From assembly GCA_000091205.1 (NCBI GenBank), contig AP006483.2: a DNA stretch of 64,000 nt. One strand, given 5' to 3'. How positions within the stretch are numbered: position 1 is the first letter of the stretch; every line of letters begins with the position of its first letter. Origin of the DNA: Cyanidioschyzon merolae. Lineage: Eukaryota. Below are positions 35,918 to 44,698 of this stretch, in pieces. Below the pieces are notes generated by a model that saw nothing but the letters and a program-made list of their open reading frames with translations, had not been told where the DNA came from and searched no databases. The translations under genes and the position numbers were made by a program.

Positions 35918-37224
35918 TCGGGAGTACACACGAACGATTGGGATTCGTTCCGCTCGGGTGCCAACAGTGGCCTTTAAGGGGCCTTTATTCCACAAATGCT
36001 GTGTTCTCCTCTGTCTTGTATTTGGCTTTGCATACGCTGGTCTGCGACGCTCCTTCAGCTTCGTTATCAGCAGTCGATGGGTGTCGAAAGCGGCGTTCAA
36101 CGACCAATGTCGGTGCTTCCGCCTGTTGTCGACGCATTGCATGCAGGTGCACCAGTTACGATGCACACTTTGCTTGGCATTCTCGTCTCGTTTGAGCACG
36201 GCATCTGTGCACGCTTCGCACTGGTGGCACTCGACCGTCATTGGAGCTCCTCGAATGCTCACGAAACCTCCTTCTTCGAAGACGACCTCCAGGTGCGACG
36301 GGACTCGCTCCACCGCTCCTTAGGTGGCCCCGACGGGTATCGGGGGCTTCACGCGATAGACGTCTCCGTTTCCGCTGCTGAGGGATCCCGTCGACGATGT
36401 CGTTGTCCGCTGGACACTTGAGCGCGCGCTATTCCATTCGACAGAGTAATTGTGGAGCGCGATGCTTCATACGATGAAACAGGTGTCGAAGAGAATATCC
36501 AGGCAGCAGAGCAAATCCAGAGACTCAGATCCTTGTACGCTCCCTCTGTAGCGAGCGGTGACACACACTCCACTGACACCGGGCTCGCTGCGTAGACTCA
36601 GGTCCGAGTCCAGGGCCCTGTCCCCGTGAAAGCGGAACAGACGGGAGCCCCTGGAGACGTCTCTCATGCGTGGTACCATGCTGTTGTCGAATGCAGTTTC
36701 ATCGACAGCGGAGAAACCGAGCGTGATTTGATATTCGACCATGATCACTTACTCTAGGTGACATGTTCAGTGAATGTTCGACGTAGCGTCCTGAGGGAGC
36801 TTTCCAGAGTCGACGTCGAGCTTCTTTCCCTGGGAATCGAGCGACACGAATCGCAGCGCCCGCAAGTGCCCTTGAACCAGAGAGATCGGAAACTGTCAGC
36901 ATGCGTCATTGGCGCCTGCTCCACACGGGCAAAGGAAAAACCTGGAGGCCTCTGCATACGAACCGGATAATCATAGCGATTGGTGTACGAGCCCTGGTTC
37001 GAGTGCTTTGCGAATCACCTTGAGTCTGGTATCGTCACGAATGCCAGCGGTGAGCAGTCGATGCAGCCAGCTCGTGAGAACGACCGTGACACCTTTGACC
37101 ATTTACCAAACTCGTAAACTCTTATTACTGGACTTTGAATCTCGAGCCGGTGCACGTTGAGTTTGGAAACATCTAGAGTCAGGAACAAGCGAGCAGTTCA
37201 GGGCTCCGTATCTAGTCTGCTACA
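35918..37224 (+). repeat. Palindrome 2, left arm. It is a ~1.31 kb unit in forward orientation and belongs to the same repeat family as the palindrome-1 arms (~70% identity).
   Basis: It is the reverse complement of 43384-44698 at ~98.5-99% identity. The mirror ORF pairs are 36349..36579(-) with 44030..44260(+), 36467..36748(-) with 43861..44142(+), 36909..37160(+) with 43449..43700(-), and 35996..36421(+) with 44188..44613(-). The inner end terminates ...GTTTGGAAACATCTAGAGTCAGGAACAAGCGAGCAGTTCAGGGCTCC.... Confidence 0.9.
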
Positions 37225-37576
37225 TGTCAGCGCAGCATCCTTCTCAGGTGGGTGCAAGTGCCGGCTGCAGGCATACGGCGTATGCGTTACAGCTTCCGTG
37301 CCGTGCGCTCTATTCTTGAAGCGAATGGTATGCGCTATCTCTGTTCAGTGTCGTCTCTGATCTGGGCAGCTGCTGGATTCTAGTGCGGACGCCACAGAGC
37401 CTTGCACCGTACCCAGGCTGTTTCGCACTGGCGGAACTGCCGCTAGAGGAGGTGCTTGTTGGAGCGCGCGGCACTTGGGCCTCGCTTGCTGAACCTGCTG
37501 CAGCTGGAGTGCACTCGGTGACTCCGCAGCAGCAGCAACGTCAACAGCTGCAGATAGGCAACTACATCAGAAGGAA

Positions 37577-42400: not shown

Positions 42401-43383
42401 TTGGACGAGCATTCCAAGTCCTGTGATGAGCGTTCGGGTTTTCGGTTTGCAGTCGGATGTGTGCTGGTCAATACGCGATCGTCTTCCACAGAAGCGCGCC
42501 TTTGATATCGTCTATGCAAGCCTCTTTATCATCGTTAAATTCGATGGCAAACAAATTCACATGTTCCACCTTCCTTCCCAGTGCTGTCTGGAGAGCGTTT
42601 GCTTTCGACTCGTTCGACACGAAGAGGATCGTGTGGATCGAGGTTGATACCCCTCTGTTCGGAATGCACCATGTTCAGGGCACGGGCTGTGCGAAAGCTC
42701 TTCATCCATCCGTTGCTCGCAGAATGACGGACTCGTGGAATTGAGATCGATTCCTGCAAGCTAACGGTGATAGCCTACATTCCTCCCGCGACATCTCTTC
42801 AGCCTGCGAGAAAAAAGTCCCATCGCCCAGTACCCGCGACAGAAAAGAAACAAAACAAATGAAGCGAGCTGGTACCGGCATTCTAGGATTTACTGCCCGC
42901 AGATCGAATGAGCATAGCAATCTCTGGGAATAAATGTATCGTTCAGAATGTAATGGAGTATGCTCATACGAAGCAGACTAGCTTGCTTTCGTTGTCTTTT
43001 CTCTGGCACCAGATCGGATGACGTGAACACGTCTGTTCCGCAACGTGCTGGAGCGCGGCCATCGTCTGGACAAGGCATCTAGACATGTCGCTCTGGATCC
43101 AGAGACGGTACGTTTGTACGTTCACGACCGCGTAGGTCGATCCGTTTCGCGGGCGAACGTCCGCAAGCGCATCGCAAAGCCGTTCCATGTCCATGCGATG
43201 CTCACGAACAGGACTGGTACCCGCAGGGTGGTCGCATTCGTCCAGTCATTCTCGCCGCAGGCATCACTGCTCGAGGCGAGCTAGCACCCGGACGGTTCTG
43301 TGGATGAGCAAAAACCTGTTCCTATGCTCGTGAGAAAGTTCATACATCCCGGGGGCTTGCCAGACTCATTGATGCACTCTACT

Positions 43384-44698
43384 TGTAGCAGACTAGATAC
43401 GGAGCCCTGAACTGCTCGCTCTGTTCCTGACTCTAGATGTTTCCAAACTCAACGTGCACCGGCTCGAGATTCAAAGTCCAGTAATAAGAGTTTACGAGTT
43501 TGGTAAATGGTCAAAGGCGTCACGGTCATTCTCACGAGGTGGCTGCATCGACTGTTCGCCGCTGGCATTCGTGACGATACCAGACTCAAGGTGATTCGCA
43601 AAGCACTCGAACCAGGGCTCGTACACCAATCGCTATGATTATCCGGTTCGTATGCAGAGGCCTCCAGGTTTTTCCTTTGCCCGTGTGGAGCAGGCGCCAA
43701 TGACGCATGCTGACAGTTTCCGATCTCTCTAGTTCAAGGGCACTTGTGGGCGCTGCGATTCGTGTCGCTCGATTCCCAGGGAAAGAAGCTCGACGTCGAC
43801 TCTGGAAAGCTCCCTCAGGACGCTACGTCGAACATTCACTGAACATGTCACCTAGAGTAAGTGATCATGGTCGAATATCAAATCACGCTCGGTTTCTCCG
43901 CTGTCGATGAAACTGCATTCGACAACAGCATGGTACCACGCATGAGAGACGTCTCCAGGGGCTCCCGTCTGTTCCGCTTTCACCGGGACAGGGCCATGGA
44001 CTCGGACCTGAGTCTACGCAGCGATCCCGATGTCAGTGGAGTGTGTGTCACCGCTCGCTACAGAGGGAGCGTACAAGGATCCAAGTCTCTGGACTTGCTC
44101 TGCTGCCTGGATATTCTCTTCGACACCTGTTTCATCGTATGAAGCATCGCGCTCCACAATTACTCTGTCGAATGGAATAGCGCGCGCTCAAGTGTCCAGC
44201 GGACAACGACATCGTCGACGGGATCCCTCAGCAGCGGAAACGGAGACGTCTATCGCGTGAAGCCCCCGATACCCGTCGGGGCCACCTAAGGAGCGGTGGA
44301 GCGAGTCCCGTCGCATCTCGAGGTCGTCTTCGAAGAAGGAGGTTTCGTGAGCATTCGAGGAGCTCCAATGACGGTCGAGTGCCACCAGTGCGAAGCGTGC
44401 ACAGATGCCGTGCTCAAACGAGACGAGAATGCCAAGCAAAGTGTGCATCGTAACTGGTGCACCTGCATGCAATGCGTCGACAACAGGCGGAAGCACCGAC
44501 ATTGGTCGTTGAACGCCGCTTTCGACACCCATCGACTGCTGATAACGAAGCTGAAGGAGCGTCGCAGACCAGCGTATGCAAAGCCAAATACAAGACAGAG
44601 GAGAACACAGCATTTGTGGAATAAAGGCCCCTTAAAGGCCACTGTTGGCACCCGAGCGGAACGAATCCCAATCGTTCGTGTGTACTCCCGAGTTAACC
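43384..44698 (-). repeat. Palindrome 2, right arm. It is an inverted copy of 35918-37224.
   Basis: Its reverse complement matches the left arm. Identity is lost at 43383/43384 (inner end) and at about 44698 (outer end). The first 133 codons of ORF 44296..45864 lie inside this arm. Confidence 0.9.

Follow-up and report, generated by a model that had tools for sequence, protein, structure and literature searches.

Palindrome 2 of Cyanidioschyzon merolae 10D is a real structure of a fairly ordinary type, an invertible segment between repeats that evolve in concert, and it falls into a known class. It probably arose from two inverted copies of a Cyanidioschyzon-specific repeat, here called family A, placed around a 6.15-kb segment, the copies having been homogenised and the segment inverted through recombination. 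The palindrome was studied within a stretch of 64,000 nucleotides, referred to below as the window.

The inverted arms and the segment between them

The inverted arms are 98.6% identical across 1311 nt, a value on which self-repeat search, MAFFT and blastn concur, and a match of 1.3 kb at this level is far beyond chance. They differ by 16 substitutions, a single 1-nt indel and, at the inner edge, two mismatches; with these 17–19 differing sites they are distinct sequences. The locus comprises the following features.

32664–35360, minus strand: GH31 alpha-glucosidase-like gene (BAM78804), the left outer neighbour, with its 5′ end facing the left arm
35666–36241, minus strand: mirrored BFA1-like 5′ end in the left arm, a truncated gene fragment directed towards the GH31 gene
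35918–37228, plus strand: left arm, a family A copy; outer end 35918, inner end 37228 (self-repeat search, MAFFT, blastn, nhmmer)
37229–43380, no strand: spacer of 6152 nt between the inner arm ends
37577–39451, plus strand: Xaa-Pro aminopeptidase P gene (BAM78805), with Pfam AMP_N and Peptidase_M24; identical to the 10D protein
39499–40714, plus strand: copy of a second dispersed repeat, family B (collinear blastn and tblastx matches)
40715–43380, no strand: low-GC, unannotated remainder of the spacer, with minus-strand ORFs at 41645–42358 (237 aa) and 41185–41589 (134 aa)
43381–44691, minus strand: right arm, a family A copy; inner end 43381, outer end 44691 (MAFFT, blastn, nhmmer)
44368–45864, plus strand: BFA1-like gene (BAM78806, 498 aa; exact match), with Pfam DUF3598_N and BFA1_C

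A preliminary description of the window had put the arms at about 98.5–99% identity as reverse complements and the M24B aminopeptidase start 350 bp from the inner end of the left arm; both agree with the present values, the distance being 349 nt. Its right outer end, 44698, lay 7 nt too far out, and its spacer of 6159 shortens to the 6152 nt listed above. Its roughly 4 kb of low-GC, non-coding spacer DNA is indeed low in GC and unannotated, except that the part at 39.5–40.7 kb is the family B repeat. Family A membership, a third inverted pair, the BFA1-like 5′ end in the right arm, family B and the inversion were all absent from that description.

The repeat is also present in independent metagenome assemblies, one contig (L027) running from arm through spacer to arm and four others (L019, L024, L025 and L026) holding parts of it. 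Both arms, bounded as in 10D, and each of the four flanks are found in metagenome contigs, and the repeat boundaries are identical in all sampled lineages. The outer flank at 35361–35917 has haplotypes with a (GTT)n length polymorphism and mosaic SNPs, and no two deep haplogroups tied to spacer orientation were found in it.

The aminopeptidase P gene is intact and under purifying selection (omega about 0.26). On the right, the annotated BFA1-like coding sequence has its 5′ end in the outermost 324 nt of the arm: the first 108 codons of BAM78806 (44368–44691) lie inside the arm and have a coding-like substitution pattern, omega in this frame being about 0.2 both in the arm part and in the linker at 44692–44880. 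The Pfam match begins at residue 219 of the 522-codon ORF and the conserved BFA1 core near Met196 (44881), and the BFA1-like protein of the sister lineage has just 332 aa. The mirror ORF of the left arm reads on for 83 codons into unique DNA and then meets a stop; it is called in metagenomes as P0104 (191 aa), and it has the same synonymous excess as its counterpart in the right arm. Beyond the outer 324 nt, the remaining arm lacks a coding signal.

Within the spacer, 40.5–43.5 kb is the lowest-GC 3-kb stretch of the window (0.513 versus 0.560 overall), and it holds no annotated protein gene, since BAM78805 and BAM78806 are consecutive accessions. The 237-aa and 134-aa ORFs are fused into one ORF of 408 aa in one wild lineage; neither has a Pfam match or a homologue outside this locus, and codon-position counts in the spacer remainder are uninformative as to coding. 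Pfam gave zero matches for all long ORFs of the arms and the low-GC spacer, the arm ORFs have no homologue outside their own locus, and protein searches of large databases with the arm ORF and the 237-aa spacer ORF matched nothing but this locus in close relatives. Rfam and tRNA scans across the entire 64-kb window returned nothing, telomere-like repeats were absent, and tandem repeats occur solely outside the arms. Further family B copies lie at 1–624 (minus strand) and 21190–22190 (plus strand). The MADS-box gene of the window is CMA095C, and the position of the window on chromosome 1 is known only through gene identity.

The dispersed repeat family of the arms

The arms of palindrome 2 are not an arbitrary duplication: they belong to family A, a dispersed repeat of about 1.35 kb. 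An nhmmer profile detected exactly six copies in the window, in the order + − + − + −. These constitute three inverted pairs of the same polarity, namely palindrome 1, palindrome 2 and a strongly diverged pair at 57.9 and 63.6 kb. The four copies outside palindrome 2 are the following.

10290–11655, plus strand: left arm of palindrome 1, about 53–55% identical overall to, and collinear with, the palindrome 2 arm
15004–16369, minus strand: right arm of palindrome 1, matching its partner at 99.6% identity
57876–59365, plus strand: fifth copy, left member of the third inverted pair (nhmmer, local alignments)
63598–64000, minus strand: sixth copy, right member of the third pair, clipped by the window end

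The arms of the two palindromes align collinearly over their full length, with blastn patches of 72–90% identity, and the arms of the third pair are about 55% identical over 289 aligned positions. Local alignments stop within a few nucleotides of 10289–10297 and 11655–11659 in palindrome 1, and at matching points in the other copies. Family A thus has what defines a dispersed family: several diverged, collinear copies with common ends, six of them at three loci. The preliminary description had noted that palindromes 1 and 2 share one architecture, and the likeness goes further than it supposed, the arms of both being homologous. In palindrome 2, homology at the level of the family may reach somewhat beyond the near-identical arms: on the left, local alignment to the palindrome 1 arm and the 58-kb copy suggests a start about 26–43 nt farther out, at 35875–35892 (flank test, P = 0.03), and on the right local alignments suggest an extension to about 44732 (P = 0.01).

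An nhmmer search for family A in the related cyanidialean contigs L028 and L029 found no copy, and both are compact in their intergenic regions. Repeat expansion in Cyanidioschyzon intergenic DNA has been reported to reach 12.7% of the genome, versus 0.59% in Cyanidiococcus (PMC9812998, Cho et al. 2023); family A copies make up about 12.7% of the window, equal to this published genome-wide share. A C. merolae interspersed repeat with 253 copies has been described (PMC1955436, Nozaki et al. 2007). Family A resembles this 'WSV repeat' (PMC1955436; Mikulski et al. 2017, PMC5405695) in being species-specific, dispersed and intergenic and in holding a truncated ORF-like stretch. What defines the published repeat is weak BLASTX similarity to WSV486, a WSSV protein. 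The two differ in size and in known extent: the WSV repeat averages 3.2 kb, with its 253 copies on all chromosomes, and the family A unit is about 1.35 kb and known here from a 64-kb window. None of the papers searched mentions an arrangement in inverted pairs around genes.

A DNA transposon, or a composite transposon with long terminal inverted repeats, was considered and found no support. Neither direct nor inverted target-site duplications were found at the four arm ends of palindrome 1 or palindrome 2, the ends of family A are not inverted repeats of each other, and Pfam revealed no transposase domain. Three-base periodicity among the diverged copies was not significant, the lone P = 0.02 coming from a region chosen post hoc. 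A scan of IMG/VR for a conserved family A motif gave three chance matches, none with profile support.

Gene order in relatives and probable exchange between the arms

Of the related contigs, L029 is the closest (its aminopeptidase has 70% protein identity), and in it the BFA1-like gene (minus strand) and the aminopeptidase gene (plus strand) stand head to head, 724 bp apart, with no family A copy. Because the two genes are so arranged there, the 10D order would be a derived inversion of the inter-arm segment, its polarity for palindrome 2 being carried by this single 3.7-kb outgroup contig. As read from these sequences, the adjacency in 10D is inverted relative to that of the sister lineage. 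A more distant contig, L028 (aminopeptidase 53% identical; 21.8 kb of its 91 kb examined around the gene), is compact and without family A. In it the deoxyhypusine synthase gene lies tail to tail with the MADS-box gene, the opposite of 10D, and the palindrome 1 segment is thus inverted in 10D relative to L028; the third pair is not, going by the phosphatase gene.

Both orientations of the spacer occur among short-read contigs. Junctions like those of the window were seen in five (L002, L007, L008, L010 and L019) and flipped ones in three (L001, L003 and L026), and a flipped junction of palindrome 1 was present in L031. A near-identical repeat of 1.3 kb is not reliably phased by short reads, and the flips may be choices of the assembler. 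Such contigs cannot prove a living flip-flop of the spacer, which may nevertheless be under way in populations.

The differences between the arms are patchy: the 19 sites are clustered, and none falls in the outer 372 nt (P about 0.007–0.03). The 10D arms differ from each other at 17 sites and from the arms of other lineages at 20–36, in a comparison where metagenome arms may be collapsed consensus sequences; within the single contig L027 the two arms may be identical by construction. Arms cluster by lineage and not by side, a clustering that rests mainly on the two 10D arms. Such patchy differences and grouping by lineage fit arm-to-arm gene conversion. On both sides, about 45 nt past the identity boundary resembles the outer end of the palindrome 1 arm, in a test of marginal significance (P = 0.03 and 0.01), and this flanking homology fits two old copies with a conversion tract. 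The arms are probably kept about 99% alike by copying from each other; gene conversion would be the homogenising force, and recombination between the arms the cause of the inversion. C. merolae is known to integrate DNA through homologous recombination with homology arms of about 1 kb (PMC12874030).

The proposed sequence of events would start from an ancestor with the BFA1-like and aminopeptidase genes as head-to-head neighbours. One family A copy would have arrived between them, and a second, inverted copy would have come to lie beyond the segment, adjoining the GH31 gene. Non-crossover exchange, that is, gene conversion, would hold about 1.31 kb of both copies near-identical, and a crossover between them would flip the inter-arm segment, the 10D reference representing the flipped, derived state. 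In either orientation the genes of the segment would keep their own inner flank and meet identical arm sequence; an inversion would therefore not alter the local context over 1.3 kb or more, and its effect should be close to neutral. The BFA1-like gene would have gained a 5′ coding extension from the outermost 324 nt of the arm, of which the left arm has a truncated mirror.

Competing explanations and wider meaning

A different history, which we regard as unlikely while giving it real weight, is that a single family A copy together with the BFA1-like 5′ end was duplicated in inverted form a few kilobases away in one step, the arms being alike because they are young. It could have happened by inversion with staggered breaks, by fold-back or template-switch repair, or by replicative intramolecular transposition. 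Such a one-step duplicative inversion predicts the inverted orientation of 10D relative to L029, and likewise, against L028, that of palindrome 1. On the outer side, arm identity ends within the BFA1-like ORF, as an arbitrary breakpoint might, and the 1.4% divergence of the arms is comparable in magnitude to that between lineages. However, in both palindromes the identity boundaries fall almost where the family A unit starts and stops, which an arbitrary breakpoint does not predict, and a repeat with the same boundaries is found in all sampled lineages. The clustering of the arm differences, in place of an even spread, also speaks against a recent event, as do the weak homology to the outer end of family A that both outer flanks retain (in the marginal test above) and the lack of target-site duplications in direct or inverted arrangement; the third pair is evidence that inverted pairs can be old.

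The bacterial elements Tn3, IS26 and Mu make inversions by intramolecular replicative transposition. Their outcome is likewise an element, an inverted segment and an inverted element, and since an outcome with direct repeats would remove the segment and so would not persist, a process of this type could explain why the local pairs are only inverted. Unlike these systems, palindrome 2 lies in a eukaryotic nuclear genome, and no transposase, terminal inverted repeats or target-site duplications were found; the two arms of the third pair, moreover, resemble each other no more than they resemble the remaining family A copies.

Selection on the arms as a unit, whether as a centromere-type structure, as a chromatin boundary or Polycomb-marked repeat pair, or as a source of double-stranded RNA, appears very improbable. 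The spacer does contain the lowest-GC 3 kb of the window, three pairs of the same polarity lie within 64 kb, about half of the annotated C. merolae repeats carry H3K27me3 (PMC5405695), and C. merolae centromeres are described as 2–3 kb long and relatively low in GC in the passages of 10.1101/096016 that cite Kanesaki 2015. A lower-GC core between kilobase-scale inverted repeats also recalls the centromeres of Schizosaccharomyces pombe and some Candida species (10.1101/096016). Unlike those, the core of palindrome 2 has an expressed housekeeping gene and a slight GC dip, and the same passages describe C. merolae centromeres without a repeat pattern, low GC being the sole published one. At 0.513, the spacer core is barely lower in GC than other intergenic stretches of the window (0.519–0.536), a dip too indistinct to support a centromere role, and it lies above the 48.4% centromere mean; there is moreover one centromere per chromosome, as against three pairs in the window. 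The arms also evolve fast between lineages (2.2%, versus 0.25–0.65% in coding DNA), no Rfam family or tRNA is present in the window, and relatives manage without the element. The suggestion in the preliminary description that the arms act as hairpin or siRNA precursors found no support: the arms are 6 kb apart, and such a role is unlikely because C. merolae is reported to be without RNA interference machinery (PMC11376382).

Least credible of all is that the reference assembly is wrong about the inverted repeat or about the way it is oriented. Misassembly does classically arise at repeats of such length, and assemblies disagree on the orientation of the spacer, but the 10D chromosome was Sanger-finished to a '100% complete' standard (PMC1955436), the arms differ at 17–19 sites, and independent metagenome contigs have both arms, the same boundaries and all four flanks.

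Recombination between two inverted family A copies, the reading preferred here, has counterparts in animals. Mammalian genomes contain polymorphic inversions flanked by inverted repeats with concerted evolution, such as FLNA-EMD at human Xq28, and sex-chromosome palindromes undergo arm-to-arm gene conversion. These too have long, near-identical inverted arms around single-copy genes; arm identity is maintained by gene conversion, and recombination between the arms can turn the spacer round with hardly any change in the context of its genes. Palindrome 2 is far smaller, with 1.3-kb arms and a 6-kb spacer in a haploid algal genome of 16.5 Mb. Its arms are copies of a dispersed family, as opposed to locus-specific duplications, and it may flip in living populations.

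A broader and rather doubtful idea is that family A systematically forms inverted pairs of fixed polarity around one or two genes, either as the trace of an uncharacterised eukaryotic element that spreads locally by replication and generates inversions, or as a module of chromatin or recombination that makes small gene blocks into invertible cassettes. If true, either version would help to account for the expansion of repeats and for the numerous small inversions by which Cyanidioschyzon and Cyanidiococcus differ.

C. merolae, whose genome is finished and in which genes are routinely targeted through homologous recombination, serves as a minimal model eukaryote. For such work, the reference orientation of repeat-flanked segments may fail in some strains, targeting constructs with homology arms of about 1 kb taken from such regions can recombine at two places, and at least one annotated protein (BAM78806) starts within a repeat. 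The findings tie the repeat expansion that doubled the intergenic DNA of C. merolae to local rearrangement, and, if the copies are paired in this way genome-wide, this haploid alga would provide a simple setting in which to study gene conversion and inversion mediated by repeats.

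Setting and structure of palindrome 2

Exact protein matches place the window on C. merolae 10D chromosome 1 (422,616 bp). As this genome has almost no introns and was completed with Sanger reads (PMC1955436), its long ORFs can be taken as genes as they stand.

Genes of the window (exact protein matches, except the first)
MADS-box gene, 7902-9602, matches CMA095C
DUF3326 protein, 16399-17925, minus strand, BAM78800
EamA protein, BAM78803
GH31 protein, BAM78804
Aminopeptidase P, BAM78805 (Pfam AMP_N and Peptidase_M24)
BFA1-like protein, BAM78806
AAA ATPase, BAM78807

The arms of palindrome 2 (35918-37228 and 43381-44691) are 98.6% identical over 1311 nt and are separated by a spacer of 6152 nt. 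The preliminary description had thus recognized the inverted repeat, but its right outer end, 44698, overshoots by 7 nt. As it stated, the aminopeptidase gene lies close to the left arm, starting 349 nt from its inner end, and the spacer has a GC-poor part (no other 3 kb of the window has as little GC as 40.5-43.5 kb, 0.513 versus 0.560 overall). The 10D annotation has no protein gene between BAM78805 and BAM78806. However, the sequence beyond the aminopeptidase, taken for plain non-coding DNA, includes a previously missed copy (39499-40714, plus strand) of another dispersed repeat, family B, which follows immediately on the aminopeptidase stop codon. Family B is diverged and intergenic; its other copies lie at 1-624 (minus) and 21190-22190 (plus).

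Assemblies made independently from wild relatives that share about 99% identity with 10D show the same arms and the same four flanks; judging by the sample series, they look like Yellowstone hot-spring metagenomes. An assembly artefact is therefore a very unlikely origin of the inverted repeat. One contig (L027) consists of arm, spacer and arm, ending at the outer arm ends. Many independent metagenome contigs stop within the spacer, at 40934-40990 and at 42019-42203, where no repeat was detected. Directly outside the left arm, a (GTT)n microsatellite (35733-35766), length-polymorphic among wild lineages, explains much of the left outer flank's apparent high divergence. Several contigs also vary in copy number or break at two tandem repeats, a 70-nt unit present four times (47010-47294) and a 144-nt unit present three times (28810-29243).

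A dispersed repeat family in inverted pairs

The likeness to palindrome 1 goes beyond the shared architecture noted earlier: by sensitive blastn, tblastx and local alignment, the arms of the two palindromes are collinear along their full length, with about 53-55% identity overall and patches of 72-90%. The palindrome 2 arms are accordingly copies of a dispersed repeat, family A, rather than an arbitrary duplicated stretch. A profile built from the arm copies of both palindromes found exactly six copies in the window, amounting to about 12.7% of it.

Family A copies in the window
10290-11655, plus, palindrome 1 left arm
15004-16369, minus, palindrome 1 right arm
35918-37228, plus, palindrome 2 left arm
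43381-44691, minus, palindrome 2 right arm
57876-59365, plus, third pair, left
63598 to beyond 64000, minus, third pair, right, running past the window end

These copies form three inverted pairs of identical polarity. With only about 55% identity between them, the two arms of the third pair are as distant as copies at different loci and thus have not been homogenized; this pair encloses an unnamed 613-aa ORF and the tyrosine phosphatase gene. Between-locus local alignments stop within a few bases of the palindrome 1 arm ends and the palindrome 2 inner ends. At the palindrome 2 outer ends they extend 26-43 nt past the identity boundary on both sides, and these flanks are closer in sequence to the outermost 45 nt of the palindrome 1 arm than random window segments are (P=0.03 and 0.01). 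Neither terminal inverted repeats nor target-site duplications were found for the arms, and searches for transposase domains, Rfam families and tRNAs returned none. Repeats enlarge intergenic DNA in C. merolae, where they account for 12.7% of the genome, as against 0.59% in its sister genus Cyanidiococcus (PMC9812998), an expansion that fits this picture of the arms. The published 'WSV repeat' is a candidate counterpart of family A. The DUF3326 gene, whose product has 508 aa in 10D versus 568 aa in most wild relatives, has its stop codon just 30 nt away from the palindrome 1 right arm's outer end.

Probable inversion of the spacer and probable exchange between the arms

Orthologous aminopeptidase genes were found at two outgroup loci from related cyanidialeans, both devoid of family A copies. 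In L029 (70% protein identity; GC 54.5%), the BFA1 and aminopeptidase genes are head to head, 724 bp apart, the adjacency expected for the flipped isomer of palindrome 2. In 10D, by contrast, the aminopeptidase gene faces the GH31 gene. On the simplest reading of these gene orders, the head-to-head arrangement would be ancestral and 10D would carry an inverted segment between the arms.

The second locus, L028 (ENA ERZ1300892 NODE_44, 1-21755; 21.8 kb of a 91-kb contig; 53% identity; GC 65.5%), has very short intergenic regions and the order aminopeptidase, S24e, Tmemb_14, two unnamed proteins (683 and 676 aa), tyrosine phosphatase (minus), deoxyhypusine synthase (plus) and MADS-box (minus). 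Its named genes lie within 12 kb, versus more than 55 kb in C. merolae, where repeat copies sit at the breaks among them. The synthase, between the palindrome 1 arms in 10D, is in tandem with the MADS-box gene there but tail to tail with it in L028, so that the palindrome 1 spacer is also inverted relative to this outgroup. The phosphatase-synthase adjacency of L028 is broken in 10D, with family A copies at both broken ends; the third pair, judged by the phosphatase gene, is uninverted. These comparisons place family A copies at small synteny breaks. Inversions and relocations have been reported between Cyanidioschyzon and Cyanidiococcus (Cho et al., PMC9812998).

Each of the four possible junctions across the arm is spanned by metagenome contigs.

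Junctions across the palindrome 2 arm and supporting contigs
GH31 to aminopeptidase: L002, L007, L008, L010
BFA1 to inner right flank: L019
BFA1 to aminopeptidase: L001, L003
GH31 to inner right flank: L026

For palindrome 1, L031 (JGI 3300050363, 1-8608) links the DUF3326 flank, through the arm, to the left inner flank, and thus represents the flipped orientation of the synthase segment. Many other contigs simply end at arm ends. The four junctions are compatible with a population holding both isomers, without proving it, and equally with short-read assembly at a 1.3-kb repeat. Recombination between the arms is mechanistically plausible, since homology arms of about 1 kb serve to recombine introduced DNA in C. 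merolae (PMC12874030).

Gene conversion is probably the best explanation of arm identity. The 10D arms show 19 differences, which fall in clusters: the outer 372 nt has none, and other stretches of 222-237 nt are also free of them (simulation, P about 0.007-0.03). When 13 arms were aligned, the two from 10D differed from each other at 17 sites but from other lineages' arms at 20-36, and the arms fell into groups by lineage rather than by flank. Homogenization of two old copies over a 1.31-kb tract fits the clustering, this grouping and the diverged outermost 40 nt or so. A serious caveat is that arms from metagenomes could be collapsed or chimeric, so that the argument for exchange rests mostly on 10D. 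The main rival, a duplicative inversion made in one step and more recently, is the less likely origin of the identity, at perhaps one chance in a few.

Coding content, function and significance

Unique changes in the outer 324 nt of the arm, read in the BFA1-like frame, comprise 8 synonymous versus 6 non-synonymous (omega about 0.22, P=0.005); the unique linker (44692-44880) has 4 versus 2 and the left-arm mirror of the BFA1-like 5' end 7 versus 5 (P=0.008). Because these values are comparable with those of the aminopeptidase (omega 0.26) and GH31 (0.17) genes, the annotated start at 44368 is plausibly real, with codons 1-108 of BAM78806 lying in the right arm. In the left arm, the mirror ORF is truncated, continuing for 83 more codons into unique DNA. 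Among wild lineages, omega is about 0.2 for the annotated N-terminal 171 residues of BAM78806 (44368-44880), which lie upstream of the conserved core and partly within the arm, though they are missing from the closest outgroup's protein. Since that protein has only 332 aa and begins near the equivalent of Met196, the extension is Cyanidioschyzon-specific and set in repeat-derived DNA.

In the inner 1 kb, variation among the 13 arms gave no synonymous excess in any frame. No homologue of the arm ORF beyond its own locus was found among 5.8 billion proteins, and three-base periodicity among diverged family A copies was not significant, so we regard family A as essentially non-coding, with one end recruited at the BFA1-like locus. 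Elsewhere in the spacer (41185-42410, minus strand), two 10D ORFs (237 and 134 aa) correspond, via a frame change, to a single 408-aa ORF (P0105) in one wild lineage; they could be an orphan gene disrupted in 10D or just chance ORFs, and have no homologues elsewhere.

The arms diverge faster between lineages than adjoining genes (2.2% versus 0.25-0.65%), which argues against strong constraint over the whole arm. There is no support for a centromere role: GC dips only slightly in the spacer (0.513) when set against the 48.4% mean of C. merolae centromeres, whose published descriptions mention no repeat pattern (10.1101/096016), and three inverted pairs within 64 kb also count against it. The suggestion of siRNA or hairpin precursors fails because C. 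merolae is reported to lack RNAi machinery (PMC11376382).

Palindrome 2 is thus real: two inverted copies of a dispersed repeat specific to the species enclose a gene block that, by gene order, appears inverted relative to a sister lineage. Repeat-flanked invertible segments are a known class, to which it belongs. Two features go beyond that class, namely that same-polarity inverted pairs of one family recur around unrelated genes and that an annotated protein (BAM78806) begins within the repeat. Neither was found described in the literature searched.
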